This document shows, in pieces, positions 11,457-57,191 of a stretch of 61,936 nucleotides of DNA (position 1 is its first letter; every line of letters starts with the position of its first letter). A program made the translations under genes and the position numbers. This DNA comes from a virus. Lineage: Duplodnaviria > Caudoviricetes. A model generated the notes under the pieces. The model ran no database searches. It worked only from the letters and a program-made list of their open reading frames with translations, and was not told where the DNA came from. The DNA lies in IMG/VR virus record IMGVR_UViG_3300031974_003128, positions 1 to 61,936 of that record; one strand, written 5' to 3'.

Positions 11457-14400
11457 ATGGCAAACATTCAAAGAAATTTTATAGCGGGCCGTATGAACAA
11501 AAGCCTTGATGAAAGGCTTGTTCCTAATGGAGAGTATATAGATGCTTTGAATGTTAGATTGGGTTCTACTGAAGAATCTGAGATAGGTGCAGTTGAAAAT
11601 ACAAAAGGTAACATACAGGTTACTACTTTACAGTATACAGACGGAACTCCACTGAGCACTTCTGCTAGATGTATTGGAGCTTATGAAGATGGAGCAAATG
11701 AAACCATTTATTGGTTTGTACACGATCCAGCTTTTACAGTTGGAGCTACAGGTAAACTAGATTTAATTGTTTCATACAATGTAGTTACAGGTTCTCTTAT
11801 ATACCACGTTGTTAGCATCAATGATGGTTTCGGGGGTAGCACTGTATTAAATTTCAATCCAGATTATTTAATAACAGGTATAGATAAGGTAGATGATTTA
11901 TTATTCTTTACAGATAATTTTAATCCACCAAGAGTAATTAATATAGGAAGAAACTACCCTAACCCTGTATCTAATATAGACCAGGTTACAAATGAACAAT
12001 TAAATGTAATTAAAAAACCACCAACACAATCGCCAAGTATTACATTAATTCAAACTTCTTTACAAGATTCATATTTAGAAGAAAACTTTATTTGTTTTGC
12101 ATACAGATATAAATATGCCAACGGAGAATATTCTGCTATATCACAGTTTTCTGAAGCAGCTTTTTTCCCTCAATCATTTCAATTTTCTGCAAATAGTTTT
12201 TTAAATGAAGGAATGATTAATAATAGTAACGGAGTTACTATAACTTATAATTCTGGAAGTTCTTTAGTTACAGGTATTGATTTATTATTTAAAGAAGCCA
12301 CTGATCCTACTATTAAAGTTATAGAAAGAATTGATAAAGCTAAAAATGGTTTAGCAAATAATGTTAATTACACTTTTACATTTACAAATAGCAAAATATT
12401 TACTGTTCTTCCTGAATATGAAATATTAAGATTATATGACAATGTTCCAAAGCTAGCTAAAGCTCAAACTGTAATGAACAATAGACTAGTTTATGGTAAC
12501 TATGTAGAAGGATATAATTTAATTGATATTAATAATACTGATGTTAACATTGATTTTTCAACAACATTAAATTCTACGTCTGTAGATTTAACAGACTTAA
12601 CAACAACTTTTGCTAATTCTCAATATCAAGCTTTTGGTAATACATATCCTGGTGTTAATAACAGATTACAGGTAGACTTTAATGGTAATACAGATAAGTT
12701 AAAACAGGGGGCTCAAATTAATTTTTTATTTAGATTTGAGTTTGATTCTGCATTTGATTCAAGTGGAGGTGGTTTACCTAATACAGATCAAGGTAGTACG
12801 ACAATAAGTTTTTCTTATGTTTTAACTCAAGATTATTATCAATCTGCTACACCTATATTAGATTTAGTCGCAAATGCTGATTTTAAAGCAAGAATAGGTA
12901 CTGCTACTTCTATTCAAACTGTAGCTAATGCTCAAGCTGGAAATGGTTCTACAATGACAGATCAGTTTAATGCTTCATTGCTTGCTCAACTTGGAACTAC
13001 TAGCCCACAATATGATGTTTATCAAACAGGTATTTCAGCTAGTACAGCAACACCTCCAGCAAAAGGAGAGCCTATTGCTACATCTGGCCCTAATAATGTA
13101 TTACAATTAGTTATACCAGCTGCTCAGTACGAAGAAACAGGAGTTGGTACTAACACAATTATACAGTATTATCAAATTACAGAAGCTTCAGCTTCAATTC
13201 AAGATATATCAGATACACAAAGTTTACATTCAAACAGAGGTTATGAAATTGGTATAGTATATATGGATGCATACAATAGAGCTTCAACAGCTTTAGTAAG
13301 TGACACTAATACAGTTAACATTCCTTGTTCAGCTTCTACATCAAAGAATGAAATACAAGTTACTATACCTATTACACAAAGAGCTCCAAGCTGGGCAACT
13401 AGATATAAGTTTGTTATTAAACCAGATAGAGAAAATTATGAAACTATATACTCAAGTATATTTATAAATGATCCAAACTCATTAAATACTTATTTATTAT
13501 TAGAAGGTGATAATGTTTCTAAAGTAGAAGAAGGGGATAGATTAATAGTAAAGAGAGATGCTAATGGCCCTATGCAGTCTTGTGTATACGCAACTGTATT
13601 AGAAAAAAAATCACAAGCTCCTGACTTTATAACACCTACAAGTGGTAATCCAGTTCCTGGAGGTACTTATATGAAAATGAGTGCTGAAGATTTTTCAACT
13701 ATAGAAGGAACAGATGATGTAATTAACTTAGGAACATTTGAACAAACTGCTGATAATGCTGACGAAAATCCAGTGGCAGCAAATCCTTTCTTTACAACAA
13801 GTGGTGGTATAAACACGAATTATGATGTACCTGTAGGATCAAGAATTGTAATGAAGATTGAGCAAGTAAGAAATGGAACAGGTAGTTTATGTGAACAAAG
13901 AACAAGTGTATTAGAAGAAACATTTATTGCAAGCGATAGTTTCAATGATATGTATGATTGGTTTGTTAGTGATAATGTAGCTTATGTTATTGAAAACAAT
14001 GCTACTACTGTTTCTGGCGATCCATCAGACCCTGTAGGAAATGTAGTAATTCCAAACTTAGTACCTGGTTCACCAACAGGGACACCTGAATCAAATGGAT
14101 ATGCAGGGAATAATATTGGTGATGCTGCAATGTTTACAATGTTTGGTGGTGAAACTAACAGCCCTACTACTAGCAGTGATTTACTTCTAAACAACTATTA
14201 TAGATTTTATCAAGACGGAAACGATAACAGTTATTATTTATTAGTTAGCGGAACAGCAGCATGTGGTGGAGGATCAAATCAAAGATCACTGGTAAAAGTA
14301 TCATTTACAGTTTATAGAAGAGATACATTTATTGTATTTGAAACTGAACCAGAAGAAGCTTTACCAGATGTGTGGTATGAAAATAATTTATCTTTTGGTA

Positions 14401-17400
14401 TTGATTCTGTTGGTAATCATGATGGTAATGTAATAAATCAAGATATTGCAACATCTCAACCTGGTATTGTTAATACAGGTTTCTTTAACTGTTATGCTTT
14501 TGGTAATGGTGTTGAGAGTTATAAAATAAGAGACTCTATTTCAGGTAAAGCAATCAATTTAGGTAACAGAGTATTTACAACATCTAATGTAGAATACAAA
14601 GAATCACATAGATTTGCTGATTTAACATATAGTGGTGTTTATAATGATGAAACTAACGTAAATAAACTTAACGAATTTAACCTTGGTTTATTAAACTTTA
14701 AACCATTAGAAGATTCTTATGGAGATATTGAAATATTATATGGAAGAAAAACAGATATTCTTACTCTACAAGAAGATAAAATATCTTATGTATTAGCAGG
14801 TAAAAATATACTGACAGACGCAGGCGGTGCAAACCAATTAACATCTGTTCCAGAAGTATTAGGTCAACAAGTCGCTAGAATAGAAGAGTATGGTATAAGT
14901 AATAACCCAGAAAGTTTTGCAGTATGGGGGCAAAATAAATACTTTACAGATGTAAAAAGAAGTGCAGTTGTAGAATTAATTGGTAGTTCTGCATCTGATG
15001 AACAACTTAGAATAATATCTGAAGCAGGTATGAGAAGCTGGTTTAGAGATTTATTTACTTCTGCATTTACTACACAAAAATTAGGAGGTTATGATCCATA
15101 CATGAATGAGTATGTACTTACCTCTAATACAATATTAAAACCTGAAGTAGCAGTATGTCTAGCTTGTGGTGTTTCTAAAAACATTACAGTTCCAGCAGGA
15201 GCTGAGTTTATTTATTGTGTTGATGTTACGCAAGCTGTAGGCACAGTAACAGTTGATTATGTAATACCAAGAGAAGGTGAATTAGATATAAACACTGAAT
15301 TAGCTGATGCTATGGTTTCAGAATCAGGAGTTCAATTAATTACAGAAGGAAATCTATCTACTACTTTTTACACTGTTCAGGTTATATACAATGGTATTAT
15401 ATATACATCAGGATCAGTAAACCAATCTGGATCAATTACATTTGCAAAAGATGTGCCTTCTCAAACACAAGCTACAGTTATTGTTACACAAGATTCTTCA
15501 GCTAATGATACAATAGAAATTACAGTTGGATGTCCATCTGCAGAAGAGCTAACTATTTATAGTGTATGTGTTACTGAACCAGCAGACGCAGGAAAATTTA
15601 TACACAATGAATTTGACTGGACTGACGGAACAACTACATCAGCTACACAATCAGATTTAGTTACATTTGGATCAGGAACTACTACATTTATTGTGTCACA
15701 ATATACTGTAAAAGTAGGAAGTCAAGGCACTGGTTTAATACCACCTGATTACGCTACGGTTACAATGTACTCAAACAAAATCGGATTTGATGATTTTGTA
15801 TTTAATCCTGCTACAGATAGATTTGGTTATTTAAGAACAAACACATTCTATGACAACAACATAGTTGATATTACTAGTTTATTAGCAGCCGCTGCTACTA
15901 TACCAACAAATGGAACTTTTGCTCCAACAAAATATTACTCAGACTTTACAATGCCTGCAACAACAGGTAATAAACTGTATTTAATCTGGGATTACACAGG
16001 AACTTTATCACCAACACCTCCTACTGCGCCAGTTGCTCCAACAGCACCTACACCAGTAGCACCAACTCCACCTACTCCAATAGCACCAACTCCTGTGCCA
16101 GTTCCTATTCCAACTCCTGTGCCAGCGCCAGTTCCTATTCCAACTCCGCCAACTCCGCCAACTCCGCCAACTCCAGTTGCTCCTACCCCAACACCTGTTC
16201 CGGTAGCACCAACTCCAGTTGCGCCAGTTGCTCCAACAGCACCTACTCCTACAGCTTTATACTATAGATTAAACCCTTGTGTTGGAACAGCTCAATTCTG
16301 TTACTATCAAGCAGCTGCACAGCCTGCTCCTAATCAGAGATATATTGATGGTACTACAGGTGTTTATTATTATTATAGTGGTGACGCTGGTTTAGTGAGT
16401 CCTGGTGGAACAGTTTGTTCAAACATACAAATTATTAGTGGTCAAACAGGATGTCCAGGAGCGCCTACTGCGCCTACTGCACCAACTCCAACTGCAACAT
16501 TCCAAGATGTAGAAATTAGAGAATGTTACACAACAGGAACAACATACCTTGTAAGATTACAAGGAGGGGTATTAACATCACCTACTTTATCAAGTGGGAC
16601 TGCTGTAAAAATTACTGGCTCAGCTTTCTTCCCTAATCCTGAGTTTACAGGAACTAAATGTTGGGAAATTATAGACGCATCGGCATCAAGCTATGATTCA
16701 GTCGTTTCAGTTGATGCAATAGAAAGTAGTTGTGGAAGTACAAATTGTCCTGTTACTTATGAATACAGAGAATATACAGAATGTCACACAAGTTTAACTC
16801 AAATATTTAGAAACTTTGCAGGAAGTACTTGGCCAAGTGTAATACAATACAATATAGGTGGAAATGATTTATGTTTCTCAAGCGGTGTTACAACAAGTAC
16901 AACATCGACAGTAGATATAGCAGGATTAACAACATTTAATAATTGTTATGATTGTGAAAGTCCAAACACTTGGAGTACTGCTATAGCAGGTAGTGGTGAT
17001 GGATCTGATTCAACGGCTTGTCCAAAAAGAACTGACTATGCTATATTTACAACAAGAGCTGATGTTTCATTAATACAAGCAGGAGATATAATGTATGCAA
17101 ACTCATCATTATCAACTGTATTTAATGGTGGTACATTATGGTATGGAGTATCAAATACTCAAGGATTATTAGGAGCTGATTACGCATTATTAATATTAGC
17201 AACAGGGGTTGTTCAAACTGTTGTGAATTGTAATCCTCCAACACCAAACCCTGTAGCGCCTATACCGACACCTCCATTCCCACCTACGCCTCCAACACCA
17301 CCATCGCCACCGACACCGGTTGCGCCAACTCAAGAAATTTCAGTTGTTAGATGTGGTACTGCTTCTCCAACTTATCATGTAGAAGTTATAGGAGCATCAG

Positions 17401-18368
17401 GATTAACAACAGGATTAGGTATTCAGTTTAGTTCTGGTGGATCAACTGGTGGTTGTCCAACTTTTGACACCACTCAATGTTATGAGATTACAGCTGTTAA
17501 CATTGGTTTCCATAACTGTCAAGGTAACTGGTATTTTACTAGTAGTAATTGTGGTGGATTAAGTGGATGTGTAGCGCCTACACCTCCGACTCCTCCAACA
17601 CCTACAGCGCCTACACCGACGCCTACTGCGCCTACACCCACACCGACTCCAACTCCTCCAACACCAGGGCCTACGCCTACGCCTACGCCTACACCGACGC
17701 CTACGCCTACGCCGACTCCGGTAGCACCAACACCTGTTCCGGTAGCATCGACTTATTACGCTACATTTGTTGAATGTGGTGATCCAACAGGAGCAGTGTT
17801 ACAAGTATTTGATTCTAGTCCAATTTCTAGTATATGGGTTATTGATGACGGTATATTATGTTATGAATATGTAAATAGTAGTGGAACAGGAGCTGATGGA
17901 AATATAAATAGTTATAATTTATTTACGAGCTGTATAGATTGTCAGAATCCTCCAACGCCTACGCCAGTACCTGTACCAGTACCAGTGCCTGTGCCTGTGC
18001 CTGTGCCTGTGCCTACTCCAGTGCCGACACCTACGCCGCCGACACCTACTCCGCCGACACCTACTCCAGTGCCTGTGCCTACTCCAGTGCCTGTGCCGAT
18101 ACCTACACCTACTCCAGTAGCGCCTAGCCCAAGTTGTATAGGATTAACGGGAAGTAGAAGCTCAATATCTGCGGCAGATGCTTGTAGTTCAACAAGAGTT
18201 GAAACTCATTACTATAATAGCGGAAGTTTCTGTTCAGCAACAGCATACTATGGAACAACAGCAGGATGTTCAAGCTTATATGCATCAGCAGTATATGTTA
18301 CTGTAGGGGGTAATGTTAGATTCTGGAATGGATCAGCATTTACTACATCTTGTCAAGGATGTCCATAA
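11457..18368 (+). CDS. tail stabilisation (nozzle, P22 gp10-like) protein, N-terminal part, with long Pro-rich/Cys-rich C-terminal extension
   Basis: N-terminus FIAGRMNKSLDERLVPNGEYIDALN, FAYRYKY, LGGYDPYMNEY typical of Bacteroidota podovirus stabilisation proteins; after about aa 1515 alternating Pro-rich tracts and Cys-rich modules. Confidence 0.75.
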   Translation: MANIQRNFIAGRMNKSLDERLVPNGEYIDALNVRLGSTEESEIGAVENTKGNIQVTTLQYTDGTPLSTSARCIGAYEDGANETIYWFVHDPAFTVGATGKLDLIVSYNVVTGSLIYHVVSINDGFGGSTVLNFNPDYLITGIDKVDDLLFFTDNFNPPRVINIGRNYPNPVSNIDQVTNEQLNVIKKPPTQSPSITLIQTSLQDSYLEENFICFAYRYKYANGEYSAISQFSEAAFFPQSFQFSANSFLNEGMINNSNGVTITYNSGSSLVTGIDLLFKEATDPTIKVIERIDKAKNGLANNVNYTFTFTNSKIFTVLPEYEILRLYDNVPKLAKAQTVMNNRLVYGNYVEGYNLIDINNTDVNIDFSTTLNSTSVDLTDLTTTFANSQYQAFGNTYPGVNNRLQVDFNGNTDKLKQGAQINFLFRFEFDSAFDSSGGGLPNTDQGSTTISFSYVLTQDYYQSATPILDLVANADFKARIGTATSIQTVANAQAGNGSTMTDQFNASLLAQLGTTSPQYDVYQTGISASTATPPAKGEPIATSGPNNVLQLVIPAAQYEETGVGTNTIIQYYQITEASASIQDISDTQSLHSNRGYEIGIVYMDAYNRASTALVSDTNTVNIPCSASTSKNEIQVTIPITQRAPSWATRYKFVIKPDRENYETIYSSIFINDPNSLNTYLLLEGDNVSKVEEGDRLIVKRDANGPMQSCVYATVLEKKSQAPDFITPTSGNPVPGGTYMKMSAEDFSTIEGTDDVINLGTFEQTADNADENPVAANPFFTTSGGINTNYDVPVGSRIVMKIEQVRNGTGSLCEQRTSVLEETFIASDSFNDMYDWFVSDNVAYVIENNATTVSGDPSDPVGNVVIPNLVPGSPTGTPESNGYAGNNIGDAAMFTMFGGETNSPTTSSDLLLNNYYRFYQDGNDNSYYLLVSGTAACGGGSNQRSLVKVSFTVYRRDTFIVFETEPEEALPDVWYENNLSFGIDSVGNHDGNVINQDIATSQPGIVNTGFFNCYAFGNGVESYKIRDSISGKAINLGNRVFTTSNVEYKESHRFADLTYSGVYNDETNVNKLNEFNLGLLNFKPLEDSYGDIEILYGRKTDILTLQEDKISYVLAGKNILTDAGGANQLTSVPEVLGQQVARIEEYGISNNPESFAVWGQNKYFTDVKRSAVVELIGSSASDEQLRIISEAGMRSWFRDLFTSAFTTQKLGGYDPYMNEYVLTSNTILKPEVAVCLACGVSKNITVPAGAEFIYCVDVTQAVGTVTVDYVIPREGELDINTELADAMVSESGVQLITEGNLSTTFYTVQVIYNGIIYTSGSVNQSGSITFAKDVPSQTQATVIVTQDSSANDTIEITVGCPSAEELTIYSVCVTEPADAGKFIHNEFDWTDGTTTSATQSDLVTFGSGTTTFIVSQYTVKVGSQGTGLIPPDYATVTMYSNKIGFDDFVFNPATDRFGYLRTNTFYDNNIVDITSLLAAAATIPTNGTFAPTKYYSDFTMPATTGNKLYLIWDYTGTLSPTPPTAPVAPTAPTPVAPTPPTPIAPTPVPVPIPTPVPAPVPIPTPPTPPTPPTPVAPTPTPVPVAPTPVAPVAPTAPTPTALYYRLNPCVGTAQFCYYQAAAQPAPNQRYIDGTTGVYYYYSGDAGLVSPGGTVCSNIQIISGQTGCPGAPTAPTAPTPTATFQDVEIRECYTTGTTYLVRLQGGVLTSPTLSSGTAVKITGSAFFPNPEFTGTKCWEIIDASASSYDSVVSVDAIESSCGSTNCPVTYEYREYTECHTSLTQIFRNFAGSTWPSVIQYNIGGNDLCFSSGVTTSTTSTVDIAGLTTFNNCYDCESPNTWSTAIAGSGDGSDSTACPKRTDYAIFTTRADVSLIQAGDIMYANSSLSTVFNGGTLWYGVSNTQGLLGADYALLILATGVVQTVVNCNPPTPNPVAPIPTPPFPPTPPTPPSPPTPVAPTQEISVVRCGTASPTYHVEVIGASGLTTGLGIQFSSGGSTGGCPTFDTTQCYEITAVNIGFHNCQGNWYFTSSNCGGLSGCVAPTPPTPPTPTAPTPTPTAPTPTPTPTPPTPGPTPTPTPTPTPTPTPTPVAPTPVPVASTYYATFVECGDPTGAVLQVFDSSPISSIWVIDDGILCYEYVNSSGTGADGNINSYNLFTSCIDCQNPPTPTPVPVPVPVPVPVPVPVPTPVPTPTPPTPTPPTPTPVPVPTPVPVPIPTPTPVAPSPSCIGLTGSRSSISAADACSSTRVETHYYNSGSFCSATAYYGTTAGCSSLYASAVYVTVGGNVRFWNGSAFTTSCQGCP
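16008..18131 (+). repeat. five Pro-rich coding tracts (about 16008-16253, 16456-16495, 17235-17330, 17571-17745, 17949-18131)
   Basis: Tandem units such as (ccaactccg)n, (acgcct)n, (gtgcct)n encoding PTP, PT, PV. Confidence 0.95.
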
Positions 18369-18427
18369 AATAATATTTGCACCCTTTAAATATAATTTTT
18401 AACTTTATTAAAATTTAATTTAATATA

Positions 18428-19717
18428 ATGGAGGAAATAAAAGATTTTTTGACTCAAGAAGAGTGTCAAGAATTAATAAAATTAATAGATGCCGACCACC
18501 AAAGATCACAAGTTGTGGAAGGTGGAACTGATAGATCAGCAGTATCAGAAGTAAGAACATCAAGCACTTGTAATCTTAGTAACGAAAACCCACTTGTTTT
18601 AAAAGTACATAAAAAAATATCTGAACACCTTGGTTTAGATATAAAATATGGTGAGTCACTTCAAGGACAACTATACGAAGTTGGTCAGTTTTTTAAACCA
18701 CACCAAGATTTCTTTAGTGGTATTGCATACGATAAACATTGCAAAGCTTCAGGTAATAGAACGCATACATTTATGATTTATTTAAATGATGATTTTGAGG
18801 GCGGAGGAACACACTTTCCAACATTGAAAAAAACAATAGAGCCTGAAACAGGGAAAGGTTTATGGTGGTATAATATGGTAGATGGTGAAGTACAGAATCA
18901 ATATATGCACGAAGGTGTATCAGTTGACAGTGGTAAAAAATATATTATAACTTCTTGGTGGAGAGAGAAAGTTTGGGATGGAGCAGCTGATCAAAATCTT
19001 TATGAGCAATCTGCCAAAGAAGATATTGAAGATGCTGTAGTAGTAGAAGAGCCACAATCATATATTGTTAAAGCATCAGAGTTAATTAAAACCACTGAGG
19101 TAATTGAGTCATCAGCTAAAACATTTTCAAGCAAAGATGATTTTCCCAAGTTTACTGAACAAGGTTTTGCATTACAAAAATGTCCTGCAAATGTGTGGGG
19201 AGTTATTCAGGATGCATATAACTTATTGAAAGAAAAACTTGTAGAAGAAAACTTCGAAGGCAAAGAACAATTTATAGTAGGTGGTGGTAGTGATATATTA
19301 TCTTTTGACCACGCTCCTAATATAAGATCTTATATTCATAATGAGTTGATTGGTATACACGAAGAGTTTTCAAAAGAAAACCTTGAGCCATCTTTTGTAT
19401 ATGGTATAAGATCATATACTAAAAATGCAACTTTAACACCTCATACCGATAGAATAGCAACCCATCATATATCGTCAATTATAATTGTAGATAAAGACTT
19501 AGCTTGCGGTTGTTCAAATAAACCAAACGCTGATGATTGGCCACTAGATATTCAGGGTCATGATGGTGAATGGTATAAAGTATATGCACAACCAGGAGAT
19601 ATGATACTGTATGAATCTGCTAAATGTGAACACGGAAGAGTAGAACCTTTTGGAGGAACATTCTTTAGGAACTTTTATGTGCATTATAAATTAAAAGACT
19701 GGGAGTATAAACCATGA
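18428..19717 (+). CDS. prolyl 4-hydroxylase-like 2OG-Fe(II) oxygenase fused to a second 2OG-Fe(II) oxygenase domain
   Basis: Domain 1: FLTQEEC, RTSS, ESLQ..YEVGQFFKPHQD, TFMIYLND.EGGGTHFP, YMHEG..V.SGKKY...W; domain 2: YGIRSY..LTPHTDR, PGDMILYESAKCEHGR. Confidence 0.9.
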   Translation: MEEIKDFLTQEECQELIKLIDADHQRSQVVEGGTDRSAVSEVRTSSTCNLSNENPLVLKVHKKISEHLGLDIKYGESLQGQLYEVGQFFKPHQDFFSGIAYDKHCKASGNRTHTFMIYLNDDFEGGGTHFPTLKKTIEPETGKGLWWYNMVDGEVQNQYMHEGVSVDSGKKYIITSWWREKVWDGAADQNLYEQSAKEDIEDAVVVEEPQSYIVKASELIKTTEVIESSAKTFSSKDDFPKFTEQGFALQKCPANVWGVIQDAYNLLKEKLVEENFEGKEQFIVGGGSDILSFDHAPNIRSYIHNELIGIHEEFSKENLEPSFVYGIRSYTKNATLTPHTDRIATHHISSIIIVDKDLACGCSNKPNADDWPLDIQGHDGEWYKVYAQPGDMILYESAKCEHGRVEPFGGTFFRNFYVHYKLKDWEYKP

Positions 19718-20730
19718 GTAAAACAATACTTGTAACAGGTGGCGCTGGTTTTATAGCTCATCACGTTATAGAAGAAATACTGGATAATACTGACTGGAAT
19801 ATAGTTAGTCTAGATAGATTAGATTTTAGTGGTAATCTAAATAGACTGCAAGAAGTAGTAGGTAGTAGAAAAGATAAGAAAAGAGTTAAAGTTATACATC
19901 ACGATTTAAAAGCTCCTCTTAATCCTCAGATTACTTCTTCTATTGGTAAGGTAAATTATGTAGCTCATTTAGCTGCAGGATCTCACGTAGATAGAAGTAT
20001 TGACTATCCAATGGAGTTTGTTCTTGATAATGTGGTTGGGACAGCAAACATATTAGAGTATGCTAAAACATTAGATATGCTAGATAAGTTTGTTTATTTT
20101 AGTACGGATGAAGTATTTGGCCCAGCTCCAGGAGAAGTTAAGTATAAGGAGAATGATAGATATAATTCTACTAATCCATATAGCGCATCTAAAGCTGGGG
20201 CAGAAGAGTTAGTTGTGGCTTTTGAAAACACTTATCAAATGCCAAACATAATAACCCATACTATGAATGTCTTTGGCGAAAGACAACATCCCGAAAAGTT
20301 TATACCAATGTGTATTAATAAAGTGTTAAAAGGTGAAAAGATTTGGATACACGGTAACAAAGAAAAAACAGAAGCCGGTAGCAGACACTACATACACGCT
20401 AAAGATGTAGCTAGTGCTTTATTGTTTTTACTAAATAATGACACACCATCTGTGCCTGATGAAACAGGAATTAAGTGTCCTAAGTATAATATTGTAGGTT
20501 CAGAAGAAATAGATAATTTATCATTAGCATTATATATATCAGCAGTGTTAAAGAAAAAATTAAAATATGAAATTATAGACTTTCATTCATCAAGACCAGG
20601 GCATGATTTACGTTATGCTTTATGTGGTGATAAAATGAAAAGTATTGGATGGACACCTAGTGAAGTTTATGATAAACTAAAACAAACTGTAAACTGGACT
20701 GTAGAAAATAAAAGATGGTTGATAGATTAA
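19714..20730 (+). CDS. NDP-glucose 4,6-dehydratase (RmlB-like extended SDR)
   Basis: VTGGAGFIA, HLAAGSHVDRSI, STDEVFG, YSASK, RPGHDLRYA. Confidence 0.9.
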   Translation: MSKTILVTGGAGFIAHHVIEEILDNTDWNIVSLDRLDFSGNLNRLQEVVGSRKDKKRVKVIHHDLKAPLNPQITSSIGKVNYVAHLAAGSHVDRSIDYPMEFVLDNVVGTANILEYAKTLDMLDKFVYFSTDEVFGPAPGEVKYKENDRYNSTNPYSASKAGAEELVVAFENTYQMPNIITHTMNVFGERQHPEKFIPMCINKVLKGEKIWIHGNKEKTEAGSRHYIHAKDVASALLFLLNNDTPSVPDETGIKCPKYNIVGSEEIDNLSLALYISAVLKKKLKYEIIDFHSSRPGHDLRYALCGDKMKSIGWTPSEVYDKLKQTVNWTVENKRWLID

Positions 20731-21552
20731 ATGAACAATTTCAACTTTCTAATTACTGCTCACTCTGATAATCCTACCAGATTAAATTTACTTTTACAAT
20801 GTATTGAATCAATAAAAAGATTTGGATATAAAGCCATAGTCGTTGATCATTTTTTTAACTACGAAGCATTTAAAGAAGCTGATGGTTTTGTATGGGTAGA
20901 AGATAATGCTATAGTAAAGCCTCAAGAGTGGAGTAAATATGATTTGTATCATGTGTGTCAAACCAATTATGAAAAGGTAGATACATTTACACCTTACGAT
21001 AGCTTTGCTCCATTTGCAATCATAGATCAATTCAACAAAGGTTATAGACTAGTTGAAGGTGATGGTGTATTTAGTATACATTATGATTGGCAACTTAAAA
21101 AAGATGTAAAAGAACTAGTAGAAAAATATCCTAACAGAGAAGGTATATTCTTTAAATATCCTCCAGATAATATGTCTTTATTTAGCAGTTGTTTTTATTT
21201 AAAGAAGTCACTTTGGAAAAAGTTTGAAAGAATACAATCTTTAGATCAGTATATGCATGAAATTAAAAAATATATGGAGTGGTTTTTTTATGATGAGTTC
21301 AAAGATGAAAATGTAGAAATATTAAAATCACACCCTAACGAATATTTTATTAATGATTTATATTATAGATCATCTTATTTAAATTTTAAATGCAATCTAT
21401 ATGGTTTAGATGATGAGGTTATATTTAATTTTAATAATTCATTTGAAACATTAGACAAAAAATTAGATTACTATTTTGTAAAAGAAGACAAGCCTCTTAA
21501 TATTCATTTACATAAAGACCATTTTAAATTTCATACATTTAGAAAAAAATGA
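20731..21552 (+). CDS. putative glycosyltransferase (GT-A-like)
   Basis: N-terminal LITAH..LLQCIESIK..AIVVDH resembles a GT-A start; IHYD candidate metal motif; cassette context. Confidence 0.5.
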   Translation: MNNFNFLITAHSDNPTRLNLLLQCIESIKRFGYKAIVVDHFFNYEAFKEADGFVWVEDNAIVKPQEWSKYDLYHVCQTNYEKVDTFTPYDSFAPFAIIDQFNKGYRLVEGDGVFSIHYDWQLKKDVKELVEKYPNREGIFFKYPPDNMSLFSSCFYLKKSLWKKFERIQSLDQYMHEIKKYMEWFFYDEFKDENVEILKSHPNEYFINDLYYRSSYLNFKCNLYGLDDEVIFNFNNSFETLDKKLDYYFVKEDKPLNIHLHKDHFKFHTFRKK

Positions 21553-22382
21553 TACGATTTATTCCCAGTGCAATAGTAGATGATAGATACAGATGGATGG
21601 CTAACTTCTGGGCGTATTGTCAAAAAAAAGCTTATGGTTTACAATCATATAATAATAGTCTTGTAACTGTAGTAAAACAAAACAATACATTTAGTCCTGT
21701 ATATAATAATGTTGATTGGGATTTAAAAGGATTACCTTATTATATGTCACCTCCAATATGGGATTATGTAACTTGTCGAAACGAAAACTGTGTAGTTATA
21801 AATGTATTCTCTTCTATAAAACCACTGCTTGATTTATATGATGATGAGGACACAATAGTCTTGTGTGATATGGATATTGTTTCACTAAAAAAATATAATC
21901 ATATAATGCCAGGTGATAGTAATGTTATATGCTATGATGGCTATGAAGAATGGCATATGTTTATAGCAGATGAGTCAAAGAAAAACTATAATAAAATTAA
22001 AAAGTATTTAACTCATGAATCTGGTAAGTTTATGAACGGTGGTTTTGTTCCTATACTTGTAAAGAATAAAACTTTAAAACTTATCATTGATGATGTTATA
22101 TCTATAGCAGAACAAATTATAGAATCAGACTCAGAAGTAAACTGGAAATGGTGGGCTTGTATGACTGCATTTTCTATTGCTTGTCATAATAATAGAATTA
22201 AAATGATAGGGCAGAATAATACTTATATACCTAGTTTTAATCAGTTTGATGAACACGATCATTACTTCGCTCACTATAGTGTTGATTCTCAGTTTAATAA
22301 AGCTACATTTCCTAATCATAATATAGCAGAATATCCAAATAATTCTTTTTATGCTTTAGTTAAGGAATGGATGGCAAATTAA
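21549..22382 (+). CDS. glycosyltransferase resembling hydroxyproline O-arabinosyltransferase / peptidyl-serine galactosyltransferase (GT95/GT96-like)
   Basis: DxD motif (LCDMD) plus colinear blocks resembling recalled HPAT motifs (see findings). Confidence 0.6.
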   Translation: MIRFIPSAIVDDRYRWMANFWAYCQKKAYGLQSYNNSLVTVVKQNNTFSPVYNNVDWDLKGLPYYMSPPIWDYVTCRNENCVVINVFSSIKPLLDLYDDEDTIVLCDMDIVSLKKYNHIMPGDSNVICYDGYEEWHMFIADESKKNYNKIKKYLTHESGKFMNGGFVPILVKNKTLKLIIDDVISIAEQIIESDSEVNWKWWACMTAFSIACHNNRIKMIGQNNTYIPSFNQFDEHDHYFAHYSVDSQFNKATFPNHNIAEYPNNSFYALVKEWMAN

Positions 22383-22403
22383 AACACTTAACTTTTTAAT
22401 TTG

Positions 22404-22411
22404 TAAATTTG
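22404..22411 (+). promoter_or_regulatory. TAnnTTTG promoter element (TAAATTTG)
   Basis: Intergenic, 18 nt upstream of ATG 22430. Confidence 0.65.
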
Positions 22412-22429
22412 TACAATATTAATTGATTT

Positions 22430-23635
22430 ATGGATTGTTTAACCTATGTAATAGTTTGTCCAGTAGGAGCAGATGGTGGTGAGTGTTCTTGGAATATACT
22501 TTGTTGTGATGGTGTTAAAAGATCAGTAACAATTCCAGAGGAAGATGAGCGAGAAGTATGTTTAGGTTACCCCTACAATATAGGTAAAACTTCTATATCA
22601 GGTTCTTCATATAGAAAAGAACCGGCAGAATCTTGTAATACTACTTGTGGTTATGCCGATCCTAGCCCACTACCTCCACCTAGTCCACCAACTCCGGTTG
22701 CACCGACACCAAGTCCTGCACCGAGTCCAACTCCAACTCCAACTCCAACTCCAACTCCTATACCTACTCCAACTCCTATACCTACTCCAACTCCAGTTCC
22801 TGCGAGTATAGTTCCACCTATACCTTCGCCAGTAACTACAGAGTATACATTAACTTATTCTCAAGCAGCTCAAGGTTGGCCATCTTTTTATTCTTTCATA
22901 CCTGAGATTATGATTGGTATGAATCAATACTTTTATTCATTTAGTGGTGGTAATTTATATCAACATAATAGTGATCTATCAAGAAATAATTTTTATGGAA
23001 CTCAATACAACTCATATATAACTACAGTGTTTAATGAGAGACCTCTTGAAAACAAACTATTTAAAACAATTAATTTAGAATCAGATCAAGCTTGGGATGT
23101 TACAATGGAAACAGATATACAAACTAATGGGTATATAGATTCAGAATGGTTTGAGAAAAAAGAAAACGCATTCTTTGCATTTATTAGACAAAGAGGAGAG
23201 ATACCTGCATTAACAGGTGAGTATGCCATGAGATCAGTAAATGGTATAGGTAAAGCATTATCTTGGAGTTTAGTCACCACTACCTTGACAGTAAACTTTT
23301 CAATCACGCCTCTAGTTAGTATAGGTAGTGAGGTGTCAGTAGGAGACTATTTATATTTCTCTGTTCCTTCATATACCACAGTAGAATTAGCAGGTCAGAT
23401 TACAAACATTGAAGTAAATCTTCCAGCAGGTATAAACAGAATTACAGTTGACGCATCCGTATCAGGAGCACAGCCTATTACAGTAGCAGATCCTTATATC
23501 TTATTTATTAAAAGTGCTGAAGCAGAATCTAATGGTTTACTTGGTCACTATGGTATATTTACCCTTACAAACAAAAGCACGCAATCAACTGAATTATTTG
23601 CCGTTGAATCGGAAATCATGAAAAGCTATCCGTAA
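22430..23635 (+). CDS. tail stabilisation protein C-terminal part, preceded by a Cys-rich module and Pro-rich tract
   Basis: TLTYS..GWPSFYSFIPE.MIGMN..FYSF.GG.LYQHN...RNNFYG...KLFKTINLE, recalled as the C-terminal region of single-chain stabilisation proteins; PSPLPPPSPP(TP)n at about 22661-22832. Confidence 0.7.
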   Translation: MDCLTYVIVCPVGADGGECSWNILCCDGVKRSVTIPEEDEREVCLGYPYNIGKTSISGSSYRKEPAESCNTTCGYADPSPLPPPSPPTPVAPTPSPAPSPTPTPTPTPTPIPTPTPIPTPTPVPASIVPPIPSPVTTEYTLTYSQAAQGWPSFYSFIPEIMIGMNQYFYSFSGGNLYQHNSDLSRNNFYGTQYNSYITTVFNERPLENKLFKTINLESDQAWDVTMETDIQTNGYIDSEWFEKKENAFFAFIRQRGEIPALTGEYAMRSVNGIGKALSWSLVTTTLTVNFSITPLVSIGSEVSVGDYLYFSVPSYTTVELAGQITNIEVNLPAGINRITVDASVSGAQPITVADPYILFIKSAEAESNGLLGHYGIFTLTNKSTQSTELFAVESEIMKSYP

Positions 23636-47116: not shown

Positions 47117-48712
47117 ATGGAAACATCTGGGGGGTACTCACCAAAAGATTTGCATTTTGCAGAAGATGCACGCTCAAAACTAATTAGTGGTATATCTAAA
47201 ATGGCTAAGGCTGTTAAGTCAACGCTTGGGCCAATGGGTAACACTGTACTGATAGAATCAAATCAGCATACACACGGAATCACCGTGACAAAAGATGGGG
47301 TGACAGTAGCTAAGTCTATTCAACTCCTAGACCCTGTGGAAAATTTAGCCGTACAGATGATGAGAGAGGCGGCCTCTCGAACAGCCGCCAACGCAGGGGA
47401 CGGTACAACAACTGCTATAGTTCTAACAGAAGCTTTGGTTGAGAAAGGTAGTGAGCTACTAGAAAATGCAGATAACAAACCACAGGTTCTGCGTGATATG
47501 GTCAGCGTAACTAATGAGATCGTGGCTAATCTAAAAAAGAGAAGCAAGGCTGTCTCTAAAAATAAATTACTAGATGTAGCTACTATATCAGCCAATAATG
47601 ACGCAGGGGTGGGTAAAGTAATAGCAGACACTTACAATGCAGTTGGAAAGAATGGGATAGTGACCGTTGAGAAATCACAAGGTAGTGAAACAAACTTTGA
47701 GACCACTAATGGTTTAAAAATAGATAGAGGGTACTCATCACCTCTATTTATAAATAATCAAAAGAAAGATGAGTGTATACTAGAAGATGTGTATGTGCTA
47801 GTATCCGATGCAGAGATAAATAATATACTGACAATCGAGAATGTACTAAAACCAATCATCTCAGATAATAAAAAATTACTAATAGTAGCGCCTTGTTCAC
47901 AAAACGTCATAAACACCCTAGCGGCGAATGTGATGAAGAACAACTTGAAGCTTTGCGCCATAATTCCACCCTCCTTTGGCTATAAGCAACATGAACTGAT
48001 GCAAGACATAGCTCTGTCGGTTGGTGCTACTTATTTTTCAGAAAAGACAGGAGACGACCTTAGCCTAATTACATTTGAGGATCTAGGGCGTGCTCAGAAA
48101 ATTATTGTTGGAAAGGATAGTTCTATTATTCTTAAAGACGATGACCATGTAGACAAATCCGCTATTGATGATAGAGTGAAGCAACTTAAGGATGCTCACT
48201 CTATTGCCACTAGCAAAGTGGATAAAGATTTTATCATGTCTAGAATCGCATCACTAACCGGTGGTGTAGGGGTTATCTATGTTGGGGGTAATACTGACCT
48301 TGAACAAAAAGAACTGTTCGATAGAGTTGATGATGCTGTGTGTGCTGTCCGTAGTGCCCTGGAGGAAGGAATACTTCCGGGGGGAGGACTGGCACTGTAT
48401 CAGGAGGGACTAAAACTATTGAGCTCTAAAAATTCTTCCAAAAAAATCGCTAAAGCGATTTTAGGGGGGGCGCTTAAAGAACCGCTCCTACAGATACAAT
48501 ATAACGCAGGGATTGAGTTTGTAAAAAAATATGACAAAGACAATATAGGTCTTGATGTAAAAAACAACAAAGAGGGTGATCTAATAAATATGGGGATTAT
48601 TGATCCTATGAAAGTAACAAAGCAAGCTCTGCAGAATGCTGTGAGTGTAGCGGTGACTATACTATCTACTAACGCCATAGTAACCATGGCAAGAACTTAC
48701 GAGACGCAATGA
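47117..48712 (+). CDS. groEL: chaperonin GroEL (Cpn60)
   Basis: STLGPMG, VTKDGVTVAK, AGDGTTTA, DRGY.SP.F, EEGILPGGG, GIIDP.KV; no GGM tail. Confidence 0.97.
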   Translation: METSGGYSPKDLHFAEDARSKLISGISKMAKAVKSTLGPMGNTVLIESNQHTHGITVTKDGVTVAKSIQLLDPVENLAVQMMREAASRTAANAGDGTTTAIVLTEALVEKGSELLENADNKPQVLRDMVSVTNEIVANLKKRSKAVSKNKLLDVATISANNDAGVGKVIADTYNAVGKNGIVTVEKSQGSETNFETTNGLKIDRGYSSPLFINNQKKDECILEDVYVLVSDAEINNILTIENVLKPIISDNKKLLIVAPCSQNVINTLAANVMKNNLKLCAIIPPSFGYKQHELMQDIALSVGATYFSEKTGDDLSLITFEDLGRAQKIIVGKDSSIILKDDDHVDKSAIDDRVKQLKDAHSIATSKVDKDFIMSRIASLTGGVGVIYVGGNTDLEQKELFDRVDDAVCAVRSALEEGILPGGGLALYQEGLKLLSSKNSSKKIAKAILGGALKEPLLQIQYNAGIEFVKKYDKDNIGLDVKNNKEGDLINMGIIDPMKVTKQALQNAVSVAVTILSTNAIVTMARTYETQ

Positions 48713-53609: not shown

Positions 53610-54275
53610 ATGGCAGTAAAATTTTCACAATTTACAACAGGAGCGACACTAGCGGACATAGATTATTTCGTTGGTTATCAAGGTACAGATAACGTACAGA
53701 TACCGAAAGCTCTTCTGACTGGAACAACATATACGGTAGATGTTCCAGCAGCAACTACAAATATAAACCTAGCAGGTAGTGATGGTAGCAATGATGCTAT
53801 TACGCTAACAGCCGGAACAGATATTGCTCTAACAAGAGTGAGTGATAGCGAGATTTCAATTGCATCAACTGCAACTGGAGATACATATACGCTTCAAGCT
53901 GGAACTAAAGTTGGTTCTAGTGTTCCATTACAATTAGATGCTGCCGTAGGAACTGATTCTACTGTTAATCTTACTGAAGGTGCAGGAATAACTATAACAC
54001 AAAACTCAGCAACAGAAATAACAGTAGCTGCCACTGCCACAGGAACTACAGTTGTTAAAGACCAATTTACAGGAGATAATTCAACAACTGGATTCACATT
54101 ATCAACTACTCCGAGTAGTGCAGACAATATTAACATTTATATAAGCGGTGTATATCAGAACTCACTTGATTCAGCTGGTGTAGCTAATTACAGCGTAGCA
54201 GGTACAACATTAACGTTTGTAACTGCGCCACCGGTAACCGCAACAAATGGTATAGAAGTAGTAATAACACAATAA
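53610..54275 (+). CDS. tail/head fibre protein
   Basis: MAVKFSQF start, Thr/Ala/Gly-rich beta repeats, C-terminal FTGD..TT.FTL..TP...YISGVYQ module. Confidence 0.7.
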   Translation: MAVKFSQFTTGATLADIDYFVGYQGTDNVQIPKALLTGTTYTVDVPAATTNINLAGSDGSNDAITLTAGTDIALTRVSDSEISIASTATGDTYTLQAGTKVGSSVPLQLDAAVGTDSTVNLTEGAGITITQNSATEITVAATATGTTVVKDQFTGDNSTTGFTLSTTPSSADNINIYISGVYQNSLDSAGVANYSVAGTTLTFVTAPPVTATNGIEVVITQ

Positions 54276-54285
54276 CGCTTAGCTC

Positions 54286-55332
54286 ATGGCAACAAACAAA
54301 GTAACTACAAACGTAATTGACATGAGTGGTAACACTGGAGGACTAGTGTGGGCGCAGGGCACAAAAGCCCAAAGACCCGCAGGAGTTGCTGGTGATTTAC
54401 GTTTGAATACTACAGATTCCAGATTAGAGCTTTACAACGGAACAGATTGGAAAAGATTATCCGAAACAGCATCACCTACACCTGATTTTCAAGCAGACTT
54501 TTTGGTACTTGCCGGAGGTGGAGCTGGAGGTACTGCTAATGGTGCTGGGGGTGGTGGAGCTGGAGGGCTTCGTACTTCTTACGGTTCTACTTCTGGAGGT
54601 GGTTCTTCTGCTGAGTCTATATTAAATATGAATTTAGCAACAAACTATACAGTAACTGTTGGAGCAGGAGGAACAGCTGTTTATGGTGCAGGTGCAGGTG
54701 CATCTGGAAATAATGGGGGAGATTCAGTGTTTAGCACAATAACATCTTTAGGAGGAGGTGGTGGAGCTCACGAGACTAGTACTTCAAAAAGTGGAGGTTG
54801 TGGTGGAGGAGCAGGAACTCTAAATGTAAATTCACCTGTAGCGGGTGGAGCAGGTACTGCAAATCAAGGATTTGACGGAGGTTCAGGAGACTTTACTGGA
54901 AGCGTTAGACATGGTGGTGGAGGTGGAGGTACTGCAGCAGTTGGAGAAGACGGTAGAACAAGCAACTCAAATGGAGGTGCGGGATTAGCTGTATCTATAA
55001 CTGGTTCATCTGTCACTTATGGAGGTGGTGGAGGAGGAAATGGAAATACCAATGGAAGTGGAGCTCCTGGTGCAGGAGGAGGTGGAAATGGATACCAATA
55101 TCCTTCAACTAATTCAGGAGGCACAGCTGGAACTAATAACCTCGGTGGAGGTGGTGGTGGAGGAGCTTATCAGCAAACTGGTAAAAATGGTGGTTCTGGA
55201 GTTGTAATAGTTAGATATCCTAACACCTATACTATATCAGTAGGAGCAGGTTTAACAAGTTCAACTACTACAGATGGTAGTGATAAAGTAACAACATTCA
55301 CTGCAGGCAGTGATACAGTAAGTTTTAGTTAA
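54286..55332 (+). CDS. glycine-rich fibre/receptor-binding protein 1
   Basis: GT.AQRP..G.LR.NT..LE.YNGTDW N-module and poly-Gly C-domain. Confidence 0.8.
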   Translation: MATNKVTTNVIDMSGNTGGLVWAQGTKAQRPAGVAGDLRLNTTDSRLELYNGTDWKRLSETASPTPDFQADFLVLAGGGAGGTANGAGGGGAGGLRTSYGSTSGGGSSAESILNMNLATNYTVTVGAGGTAVYGAGAGASGNNGGDSVFSTITSLGGGGGAHETSTSKSGGCGGGAGTLNVNSPVAGGAGTANQGFDGGSGDFTGSVRHGGGGGGTAAVGEDGRTSNSNGGAGLAVSITGSSVTYGGGGGGNGNTNGSGAPGAGGGGNGYQYPSTNSGGTAGTNNLGGGGGGGAYQQTGKNGGSGVVIVRYPNTYTISVGAGLTSSTTTDGSDKVTTFTAGSDTVSFS

Positions 55333-55333
55333 T

Positions 55334-56161
55334 ATGGCACATTACGCATTTTTAAATAACGACTCTACAACACAAACTCTAAGAGAGGAGCTTTCTCTTT
55401 TAATGATTGATATGGGTAATCTTACTTCTATTGAAGAGCCAGATACAGCTGCCATTGAAGCTAAGCAAGTAGAGATAGACGCAAAGCAGCAAGAAATAGA
55501 TAATGCACTTTGTGTAGTAACAGGAGTTATAACAGGAGTGCCTGAGACTTATATGGAGGCTGCAAGCGATGAAACGATAGAGCAGGAAATAAAAGATTTA
55601 GAAGCTAGTAGGGTTGACCCTGAAACACACGAAGCTTTACCAATAGAAGAGGTTGCAGTAATAGATGCGCAGATTCAAGCTAAGGTTGAAGAGCTTAACG
55701 CTTTACCACCAGTAGAAGTAGATAATACAGAATACTGGGAAGGGTATTATGGAAAAAGCGGACTATGTAAAAGAACTTCTTATAACACATTAGGTGGTGT
55801 TCACCAAAACGGAGGCACACCTTTTAGAAAAAATTATGCAGGCATTGGTATGATATACGACCCTGTAAGAGATGCGTTTTATGCACCGCAGCCATTTGCA
55901 AGTTGGACTTTAAATGAAGATACTTGTTTATGGGAATGCCCTGTAGAAAAACCTGAGGGTGAATACTGGTGGAAAGATGATACTGGGGAGTGGGTAGATT
56001 ATAAATACTACTCTCAGCCTTTATATGAAACATCACCATCACCAAGTGCAAACTGGAATACAAATATAGGTCAATGGGAGTACCCTAAGCCAGTTCCAGA
56101 TATTGAAAATTCGTATCTTTGGAGATGGGATGAAGAAACACAAGATTGGATAGTTATTTAA
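55334..56161 (+). CDS. fibre-associated protein (MAHYA family) with coiled-coil insertions
   Basis: RTSYN...FRKNYAGIG..YD...DAF.APQPFASW.L; paralog of 60334..60699. Confidence 0.7.
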   Translation: MAHYAFLNNDSTTQTLREELSLLMIDMGNLTSIEEPDTAAIEAKQVEIDAKQQEIDNALCVVTGVITGVPETYMEAASDETIEQEIKDLEASRVDPETHEALPIEEVAVIDAQIQAKVEELNALPPVEVDNTEYWEGYYGKSGLCKRTSYNTLGGVHQNGGTPFRKNYAGIGMIYDPVRDAFYAPQPFASWTLNEDTCLWECPVEKPEGEYWWKDDTGEWVDYKYYSQPLYETSPSPSANWNTNIGQWEYPKPVPDIENSYLWRWDEETQDWIVI

Positions 56162-56162
56162 T

Positions 56163-57188
56163 ATGGCAACAACAAAAATAATACCTGAAGTACTTGATTT
56201 AAACTCAGCAACGTCTGATAAAGGTTTAAAAATGCCTAGCGGCACTATCTTTAATAGGCCTACTGGCGTCACAGGTTCTATGAGAAACAATACGAGTGAA
56301 TCTTCAAATGGAGGAGCTTCAGCAATGGAATATTATAATGGAACTGAATGGCAAAAAATTTCTAATGATGCTCCGCCTGTTTTTATGGATTACCTTGTAG
56401 TTGCTGGTGGGGGAACTGGAGGAAGTTATTATAATGGTAATGCTGGTCAAGAAGCTGGAGGTGGGGGTGCAGGAGGAGTGCGTACATCTTATGGTAGTAT
56501 ATCAGGAGGTGGATGTTCAGCAGAAACAATTTTACAAATATTTCCAGGAACATACACAATTACAGTAGGTGCAGGAGGTGCGGTTACTAATACTGAGGCA
56601 AGAAGCGGAAACCCTTCATCTATTGCTGACGCAACAACTACATTAGTATCTTGTACTGGCGGTGGAAGAGGTGGAGGAAATAGGTCATCTACACATCAAG
56701 TAGATTCTCAGGGCGGTGGTTCTGGTGGAGGTGGAGGTTGTGTAAATTTAACAGGAAAAGCTGGAACAGCATGTGAGGGGTTTGCTGGTTCAAATAAAAC
56801 AGGGTCATCTGGTGGTGCTGGAGGTGGAGCAGGAGAAGCTCCAACAAGTTATAATGGAGGAGATGGAATTGAAGTGTCTATAACAGGTACAGCAACATAC
56901 TACGGTGGAGGTGGTGGAGGTTCAGATAATGCTGGAATAGATGTAGGTACTGGAGGTCAAGGTGGAGGTGGTGCTGGAAACGGTGGTTCAGCAACTGCAA
57001 ATACTGGAGGTGGTAGTGGTGGTGCAGCGCCAGGTGCAGTTGCAGCAAGCGGAGGTTCAGGAGTAGTAATATTAAGATTACCTACAAGTAAATACTCTGG
57101 AAACACTACAGGTTCGCCAACTGTAACTACCGATGGAACAGATACAATATTAAAATTTACAGGAAGCGGAACATACGTACATTCATAA
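56163..57188 (+). CDS. glycine-rich fibre/receptor-binding protein 2
   Basis: Same N-module and poly-Gly domain as 54286..55332. Confidence 0.8.
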   Translation: MATTKIIPEVLDLNSATSDKGLKMPSGTIFNRPTGVTGSMRNNTSESSNGGASAMEYYNGTEWQKISNDAPPVFMDYLVVAGGGTGGSYYNGNAGQEAGGGGAGGVRTSYGSISGGGCSAETILQIFPGTYTITVGAGGAVTNTEARSGNPSSIADATTTLVSCTGGGRGGGNRSSTHQVDSQGGGSGGGGGCVNLTGKAGTACEGFAGSNKTGSSGGAGGGAGEAPTSYNGGDGIEVSITGTATYYGGGGGGSDNAGIDVGTGGQGGGGAGNGGSATANTGGGSGGAAPGAVAASGGSGVVILRLPTSKYSGNTTGSPTVTTDGTDTILKFTGSGTYVHS

Positions 57189-57191
57189 ATT

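Follow-up and report, generated by a model that had tools for sequence, protein, structure and literature searches.

A soluble HPAT-family glycosyltransferase encoded beside a prolyl 4-hydroxylase in the virion gene module of a tailed phage

In plants and green algae, extensins and small peptides are modified by the hydroxyproline O-arabinosyltransferases HPAT1-3 (family GT95) and by the peptidyl-serine alpha-galactosyltransferase SGT1 (GT96), which act after a prolyl 4-hydroxylase (P4H). According to a review, the CAZy family GT95 was founded on HPAT1-3 and has GT96 (SGT1) as a relative, the enzymes being type II membrane proteins of the Golgi; a GT-A-like fold has been predicted for GT95 in a deep-learning study, and a further article describes HPATs as plant-specific (PMC4738400). 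Here we describe a gene found at positions 21549-22382 (+ strand) of the IMG/VR virus record IMGVR_UViG_3300031974_003128 (Duplodnaviria; Caudoviricetes), the whole 61,936-nucleotide stretch of which was analyzed and is called the window below. Its product is a soluble HPAT-family GT-A enzyme with a conserved DxD motif and a late His, encoded beside a P4H and between virion proteins with Pro-rich linkers, and the phage probably sugar-coats its own particle in a plant-like manner.

Like the plant HPATs, the phage enzyme scores above the cut-off of the Pfam family built on them, has a GT-A-type fold with a DxD motif, and is paired at the gene level with a P4H and with Pro-rich, extensin-like sequences. 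Unlike the anchored Golgi enzymes, it is a soluble protein of 277 residues predicted to act in the bacterial cytoplasm, and lacks the membrane anchor, one of the features that define plant GT95. The candidate acceptor sequences also differ from the Ser-Hyp4 motifs of plants, as Pro in the phage linkers is mostly non-contiguous (TP, VP, AP).

A cytoplasmic system for comparison is the Skp1 pathway of Dictyostelium and Toxoplasma, in which the cytoplasmic hydroxylase PhyA is followed by Gnt1 (GT60), whose activity depends on the hydroxylase. Gnt1 adds N-acetylglucosamine (GlcNAc) to hydroxyproline, and further soluble transferases then act. The phage locus similarly would combine a soluble cytoplasmic hydroxylase with soluble transferases; PF11397 transferases occur both as fusion partners of some relatives of its transferase and as genes of sister islands, and one of the folds closest to that of the phage enzyme (Z 14.0) is that of the alpha-galactosyltransferase which completes the Skp1 glycan (6mw8). 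Whereas Skp1 is modified at one Pro with a role in signaling, the phage candidates are long repetitive linkers of structural proteins, and the initiating enzyme would belong to the HPAT family and not to PF11397, which we take to be the Gnt1/GT60 family.

We know of no HPAT-type transferase beside the P4H of the chlorovirus PBCV-1, and of neither a hydroxylase nor an HPAT-family enzyme in the virion glycosylation of mycobacteriophages, two viral systems with which the locus can also be compared. PBCV-1, which unlike the phage infects a eukaryote, likewise has Pro-rich proteins and encodes its own P4H (PDB 5c5t, matching the window P4H at E = 5.4e-13), characterized with peptide substrates as the title of the report indicates (Eriksson et al., 1999). 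Mycobacteriophages resemble the present phage in that phage-encoded transferases reportedly decorate their own virion proteins, although hosts and phage lineages differ. Our literature search found no paper on phage P4H/HPAT virion glycosylation, with coverage of subscription journals so thin that this absence is not proof; in an archaeal virus paper, a P4H is merely listed among the genes.

The HPAT-family transferase and its relatives

The open reading frame (ORF) runs from ATG to stop exactly at the coordinates given above, its start codon sharing the ATGA at 21549-21552 with the stop codon (TGA) of the gene before it. An earlier note on this DNA had compared six colinear strings of the translation to HPAT motifs. 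All six are present in the ORF in the same order, namely RYRWMANFWAYCQKK at residue 13, CVVINV at 81, EDTIVLCDMD at 100, GGFVPILV at 164 with LKLI at 176, WWACMTAFSIA at 201 and FAHYS at 240, and blocks two to six fall in the conserved core of the family (N85, D107, D109, G164-G165-F166, W201, W202, M205, H242-Y243-S244). The sole family matched in a Pfam scan was PF23452 (HPAT; E = 5.5e-8), with a whole-protein score of 33.0 bits where the curated gathering threshold is 23.9, transferase residues 63-253 aligning with profile positions 57-251 of 307; in a six-frame search of the genome the score was 32.5 bits. The same profile was matched at E <= 0.1 by 17 of 20 homologues (best 8.2e-10), and neither GT8 nor any other transferase family of Pfam reached that threshold in 20 family members. 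By these sequence scores the resemblance to HPAT exceeds chance, in support of the earlier note; the outcome that it had set against its own proposal, best matches to GT8 or other lipopolysaccharide or capsule enzymes with no HPAT/SGT signal, is not the one obtained. An NCBIfam scan of the transferase gave no match, a PHROGs scan yielded two marginal matches only, both unknowns, and an atlas look-up led no further than to the viral clusters of the transferase itself, which carry a partial HPAT label.

Conservation within the family points to the same set of residues. In 20 homologues (37-78% identity) N85, D107, D109, Y132-E133, W135-H136-M137, H156, G164-G165-F166, W201-W202, M205, C212-H213-N214 and H242-Y243-S244 are invariant; in 32 remoter members (18-65% identity) D109, W135, W201, W202, M205 and H242 are still invariant and D107 is nearly so, and the position before M205 varies across the phage family (C, Q, S, A, N, G). 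A DxD motif together with a late His (D107-x-D109 and H242) is the pattern expected of a metal-dependent enzyme. The protein has no membrane segment (its highest 19-residue Kyte-Doolittle mean is 1.07) and no signal-like N-terminus, residues 2-9 forming the first strand of the modeled fold, in agreement with the earlier view of an unanchored cytoplasmic enzyme.

An AlphaFold2 (AF2) model built from the 20-sequence alignment has a GT-A fold (pLDDT 94, pTM 0.91). A structure search against representatives returned LgtC (Z 15.3, root-mean-square deviation 3.8, 233 residues aligned), glycogenin (Z 15.0) and WbbM (Z 14.6), followed by the UGGT catalytic domain (Z 14.0), the Skp1-glycan alpha-galactosyltransferase mentioned above, BoGT6a (Z 13.6) and PBCV-1 A64R (Z 13.5). 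Foldseek likewise returned BoGT6a (E = 1.1e-6, TM about 0.5), and a search of the viral structures of BFVD gave generic GT-A matches only (TM about 0.5). The AlphaFold comparison suggested in the earlier note thus sets the enzyme closest to retaining GT-A transferases of GT8, GT6 and GT24, and from these fold neighbors its mechanism is probably retaining. The GT8 enzymes LgtC and glycogenin are the best structural matches, and the DxD and late His presumably sit like the Mn ligands of LgtC; unlike a GT8 protein, however, the phage enzyme lacks the Pfam GT8 signal, and sequence identity in the alignments with LgtC and glycogenin is 8-9%. An HPAT could not have been returned by a structure search, as the PDB has no entry that is recognizable as a relative from its sequence; the best E values there were 0.74 for a profile of 20 family members and 0.15 for one of 32, neither of them credible.

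The HPAT-like family is small and mostly viral. A word-index search found 29 matches, from sources including JGI, ENA and Tara metagenome collections, and an exhaustive search of 1.84 billion representatives found 66 at E <= 0.001; no named plant protein occurs among the matches of the word-index search, of the exhaustive search or of a search with the 32-sequence alignment, which are metagenomic and viral only. A search with P0082, the relative nearest to the HPAT profile, returned only itself, and tblastn of the transferase against 50,697 deposited phage genome records gave no match, so that this collection has no known cultured carrier. When 20 remoter representatives were scanned, 14 matched HPAT at E <= 0.001, ten of them above the cut-off. 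Nine relatives are long forms: the fusion partner is PF11397 ("Glycosyltransferase (GlcNAc)") in four, a Cupin_8/JmjC oxygenase in one and a methyltransferase in another; of the remaining three, the first shows a weak GDSL-like region, the second is without any other family, and the third (P0090, an Ig-repeat protein) is probably a chance match.

Hydroxylase neighbor, Pro-rich linkers and variable islands

The transferase gene is the last of four close-packed genes, neighbors abutting or overlapping by 4 bases, and this cassette sits inside the structural module, on the same strand as the virion genes. It begins with a two-domain oxygenase (18428..19717, +), residues 1-195 of which form a peptidyl-prolyl 4-hydroxylase domain and residues about 225-429 a second domain. 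The oxygenase matches Pfam 2OG-FeII_Oxy_3 (E = 1.4e-14), and its first 195 residues have nine PDB matches, all prolyl 4-hydroxylases, including 3itq (1.4e-24), the human collagen P4H alpha-2 (7zsc, 4.5e-19), the PBCV-1 enzyme at the value given above and the Chlamydomonas enzyme 2jig (7.5e-13); HQD and the later His and Lys align with those of the solved enzyme. Judged by these alignments, the neighboring oxygenase is a true prolyl 4-hydroxylase. TET/JBP-type oxygenases together with glycosyltransferases modify DNA bases in some phages, and an oxygenase plus a glycosyltransferase is also the recipe of phage DNA hypermodification, for which one could further cite the weak PHROG matches of the oxygenase named as DNA enzymes (phrog_2297 and phrog_274). 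We regard such a role as very improbable here, as the nine solved structures related to the oxygenase are without exception P4Hs that act on protein, its Pfam family is 2OG-FeII_Oxy_3, and the genes lie in the virion module and not in the replication module on the other strand.

The pairing with a P4H, to which the earlier note had linked the transferase, is a general feature of its viral relatives. IMG/VR contains 56 loci that encode a relative of the transferase (32-91% identity), and the window proteins were used as phmmer queries against all ORFs of these loci. A P4H homologue adjoins the transferase in 52 of the 56 (it is missing in L027, L047, L052 and L056), a homologue of the dehydratase encoded second in the cassette is present in 14, and one of the 273-aa protein encoded third in eight; because of these proportions the P4H and the HPAT-like enzyme are taken as the core module and the other two genes as accessory. 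In L038-L055 and similar loci, which were not scanned with Pfam for other transferases, the HPAT-like gene directly follows the P4H gene and neither accessory gene of the window is detected. That many P4H plus HPAT-like loci have neither suggests that it is the HPAT-like enzyme that initiates the glycan. Clustering of the transferases at 90% identity gives 30 groups, and a P4H is found nearby in 27 of them.

Three of these loci merit separate mention. Remote HPAT-like genes (32-35% identity) at L056:6269-10849 and L047:8717-10837, on 159-kb and 300-kb contigs, have no P4H nearby; the neighbor of the former, an RNA polymerase Rpb2 gene, points to a giant virus, and that of the latter is a GT61-like gene. 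At L040:8014-10825, both the P4H and the HPAT-like gene are broken into overlapping ORF pieces, reflecting either a decaying cassette or assembly frameshifts.

Pro-rich ORFs, defined by at least 40% Pro over 30 residues, were found in 48 of the 56 loci, and in 26 of the 30 groups such an ORF lies no more than 300 bases from the cassette (upstream in 23, downstream in 11), against a background of 71 Pro-rich ORFs among the 517 of at least 150 aa in these loci. The adjacency is also seen in L031-L037, phages without a detectable homologue of the giant protein that precedes the cassette of the window.

This giant protein, which we propose to be the main substrate, is a virion structural protein of 2303 aa (11457..18368, +) that matches phrog_14478 over residues 5-775 (E = 1.1e-220) and has no Pfam family covering the whole protein. 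Its C-terminal third consists of small Cys-containing modules joined by four Pro/Thr/Val/Ala-rich linkers, all encoded on the + strand: 16011..16250 (80 aa, 38 Pro; residues 1519-1598), 17235..17327 (31 aa, 18 Pro), 17577..17741 (55 aa, 28 Pro, mainly (Thr-Pro)n) and 17949..18131 (61 aa, 32 Pro, mainly (Pro-Val)n and (Pro-Thr)n). Together they contain 116 Pro among 227 residues, the rest being largely Thr, Val and Ala, and they account for the region of raised GC (up to 0.426) and negative GC skew at 16001-18000, which fits their CCN codons. The proposed second substrate, a 401-aa virion protein encoded immediately downstream of the transferase (22430..23635, +), has a crAss muzzle C-terminal domain (Pfam crAss_MUZ_C, E = 1.4e-19) and an N-proximal linker of 57 aa with 29 Pro (22661..22831, +). 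Note also that the several Cys-containing modules between the giant-protein linkers (16251-18368; residues about 1600-2303) measure roughly 70-330 residues, have a beads-on-a-string look and may be displayed binding domains.

The gene content of the site flanked by the giant virion gene and the muzzle-domain gene varies among related phages. Loci with a homologue of the N-terminal 800 residues of the giant protein were fetched (at least 80), and the count given here covers the 20 with at least 11 kb downstream of the match start, near-duplicates being kept. Pro-rich linkers are present in 16 of these 20; two of the 16 carry the cassette of the window (the same contigs as L002 and L004), ten a P4H without an HPAT-like gene and four neither. 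A Pfam scan covered eight of the 14 loci that lack the window cassette, those left out (L076, L086, L099, L111, L127 and L131) having ORF lengths that match the scanned ones. Islands combine a P4H with an O-FucT-like enzyme and a carbamoyltransferase (L075 and L091, the latter with an added PF11397 transferase), with a radical-SAM/SPASM protein and PF11397 (L120), or with a GT32-type "Gly_transf_sug" enzyme (L125 and L126), and those of L071, L100 and L117 have no P4H and encode a PF11397 protein (E about 1e-75) and a double GT32-type enzyme, accompanied in L100 and L117 by an FkbM methyltransferase. At least five other enzyme sets thus occupy the site. With eight of these 14 loci Pfam-scanned, islands of P4H and/or glycosyltransferases were found in 16 of 16 linker loci, whereas a P4H or HPAT-like gene was found in none of the four linker-free loci (L061, L132, L134 and L136), the three scanned of which show the giant gene, then one ORF without a Pfam match, then the muzzle-domain gene. 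It follows from this difference that enzymes and linkers come and go together at the site.

Proposed hydroxyproline glycosylation and competing explanations

On balance we favor the explanation that the P4H hydroxylates Pro in the virion linkers, that the HPAT-like enzyme O-glycosylates the resulting hydroxyproline and that the accessory genes extend the glycan. The order of steps that we infer is as follows. Late in infection, in the cytoplasm of an aerobic host, the phage would make the transferase together with its own P4H, which would convert Pro of the Pro/Thr/Val/Ala linkers of the 2303-aa and 401-aa proteins into 4-hydroxyproline. The HPAT-like enzyme, with a metal held by D107, D109 and H242, would then place the first sugar on the hydroxyproline oxygen; in the present phage and those most closely related to it, a 6-deoxyhexose-type sugar would probably be attached to the first one through the dehydratase and the second GT-A-fold protein. 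Such a sugar coat would stiffen the spacers between the small Cys-containing modules displayed at the tail end and make them resistant to proteases, which is the presumed benefit to the phage. In a wider form, which we put forward tentatively as quite possible, the particles of tailed phages that infect marine Bacteroidota bear phage-made hydroxyproline-rich glycoproteins of a plant-like kind, the P4H and the soluble HPAT-family transferase starting O-glycans on hydroxyproline in polyproline-II linkers, and the linker-flanked site is a swappable glycosylation island that diversifies the sugar coat with HPAT-like, PF11397, O-FucT-like and GT32-like enzymes, carbamoyl- and methyltransferases and a dehydratase.

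If this proposal is correct, phages can make hydroxyproline-linked glycans in the bacterial cytoplasm, and a system of hydroxyproline O-glycosylation would for the first time be known from beyond eukaryotes and their viruses. The phage family would then be a plausible evolutionary relative of the plant GT95/GT96 enzymes, to which it might even have given genes or from which it might have received them. There would also be consequences for how the adsorption apparatus of marine phages is thought to be protected or tuned, and the P4H and transferase would form a compact enzyme pair with which hydroxyproline-glycosylated peptides could be produced in bacteria. Soluble, 277 aa long and confidently modeled, the phage homologue would in addition be the first through which the structure and biochemistry of the GT95/GT96 fold become tractable.

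Several observations weigh against hydroxyproline glycosylation. The link to the plant HPATs is a single profile with a modest score of 33 bits, and in three of the 30 groups the transferase has no P4H nearby. The complete phage genome has no UDP-arabinose synthesis gene, its sole sugar-nucleotide enzyme being a 4,6-dehydratase; the sugar donor could come from the host. A chlorovirus review cites, as unpublished, a failure to detect hydroxyproline in PBCV-1 particles, and for this reason a viral P4H does not guarantee hydroxyproline in virions. Thr is present in all 28 linker sets examined (6-48% of linker residues), so that Thr or Ser could be the acceptor, and linker composition is unable to separate Thr from hydroxyproline in this role. 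Finally, in the P4H-free islands of L071, L100 and L117 the linkers are served by glycosyltransferases without hydroxylation.

The two last points lead to a serious rival, which we nevertheless judge unlikely: an SGT1-like (GT96) action, in which Thr or Ser of the Pro-Thr linkers would be glycosylated, much as in the Pro-Thr linkers of secreted glycoside hydrolases, and the P4H would separately hydroxylate Pro, for example to stabilize a polyproline-II helix. Thr in all linker sets and glycosyltransferases beside similar linkers in P4H-free sister islands are what such an activity would lead one to expect, as is Thr being the residue that most often precedes Pro in the window linkers (50 cases in the giant protein), and the relationship of GT95 to GT96 stated in the review fits it as well. 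However, the HPAT-like gene keeps its P4H in 27 of 30 groups, while PF11397 transferases occur at the island site both with and without one, and some linkers that adjoin a cassette are nearly pure (Pro-Val)n, that of L049 containing 6% Thr and 5% Ser.

Returning to hydroxyproline in the virion linkers as the favored acceptor, one may also ask whether the virion is the target at all. The enzymes could act on proteins or envelope glycans of the host, or on a phage protein that is not structural, in which case it would be incidental that they are encoded between structural genes, and the three groups of 30 in which the transferase has other surroundings, among them the giant-virus-like L056 with its Rpb2 gene, are in line with this. 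We consider it improbable, given the tight same-strand coupling of the cassette to its neighbors within the structural module, the adjacency of a Pro-rich ORF in 26 of 30 groups, including L031-L037 where the giant-protein homologue is missing, the way in which islands track linkers (16 of 16 vs. none of four) and a transferase that has neither a membrane segment nor a signal-like N-terminus.

Accessory cassette genes and the phage genome

The C-terminal half of the oxygenase (19103-19714) has no Pfam or PDB match, even at E 10. It matches phrog_2954 (2.9e-17), the PHROG label of its relatives being 'ferrochelatase', and a gene of Synechococcus phage S-SCSM1 annotated '2OG-Fe(II) oxygenase superfamily protein'; since HTD and a later His are visible by eye, we read this second domain as oxygenase-like. 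It is retained in most loci and missing from the single-domain P4Hs of L034-L037. In deposited phage genomes the two-domain P4H gave single-domain matches only, none of 13 records covering 80% of it.

The second gene of the cassette, the start of which overlaps the P4H stop, encodes an accessory nucleoside-diphosphate-glucose 4,6-dehydratase of the extended short-chain dehydrogenase/reductase type (19714..20730, +). It matches TIGR01181 (dTDP-glucose 4,6-dehydratase; E = 7.2e-73, under the equivalog cut-off of that family), contains an STDEVFG motif, and all of its PDB matches at E <= 1e-30 are dTDP-glucose 4,6-dehydratases (best 8du1, 3.3e-48). The third gene (20731..21552, +), also accessory, encodes a 273-aa protein with no Pfam, NCBIfam or PHROG match and an AF2 model (pLDDT 80) of the GT-A/nucleotide-diphospho-sugar fold. 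Its best fold matches are the fucosyltransferase WrtF (Z 14.3, 161 residues aligned), PBCV-1 A64R (Z 13.7) and SpsA (Z 13.4), with the nucleotidyltransferases MobA (Z 13.0) and GlmU (Z 12.8) scoring nearly as high; going by the model, it is probably a second, chain-extending glycosyltransferase. An assignment as an RmlA-type nucleotidyltransferase was dropped, as the Gly-rich N-terminal motif is missing by eye, although the fold search leaves a nucleotidyltransferase possible. PF11397 has no match in the window.

The window represents the complete genome of a marine phage, with direct terminal repeats and an estimated completeness of 100%, in which terminase, portal and virion genes are all on the + strand. 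The terminase matches 87 records, including phages of Cellulophaga, Tenacibaculum and Maribacter, and is 77% identical to one uncultured record and 46% to the Flavobacterium phages listed; because its relatives belong to Flavobacterium and similar phages, a marine Flavobacteriia host is a fair inference. On the + strand the only terminator-like site lies at 15187, inside the giant gene, with none within or beside the cassette, and promoter-like sites (58 vs. 64.9 expected) are uninformative. Contigs from oligo-dT RNA-seq of a sediment metagenome cover all 30 bins of 11457-23635, 31 of 35 pieces having at least 99% identity, and one of them crosses the junction at 21549; as such libraries can contain DNA, this coverage does not show transcription. 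One seawater DNA contig joins 20057 to 21703, skipping 1645 bases of the dehydratase and 273-aa genes, but with just 20 letters on one side of the joint, which could come from another strain or be an artefact and is not relied on.

Elsewhere in the genome, the phage encodes its own chaperonin pair, consisting of a GroEL-type Cpn60 (47117-48712, +; Pfam Cpn60_TCP1, E = 1.7e-51) and a GroES-like protein of 187 aa (321-884, +; phrog_13932, E = 2.2e-24). The region 53610-60302 (+) contains four Gly_rich_2-domain genes, one of them also with DUF7483, which probably encode fibers; its G+C content is 0.39-0.42, compared to about 0.27-0.36 elsewhere outside the two GC peaks.

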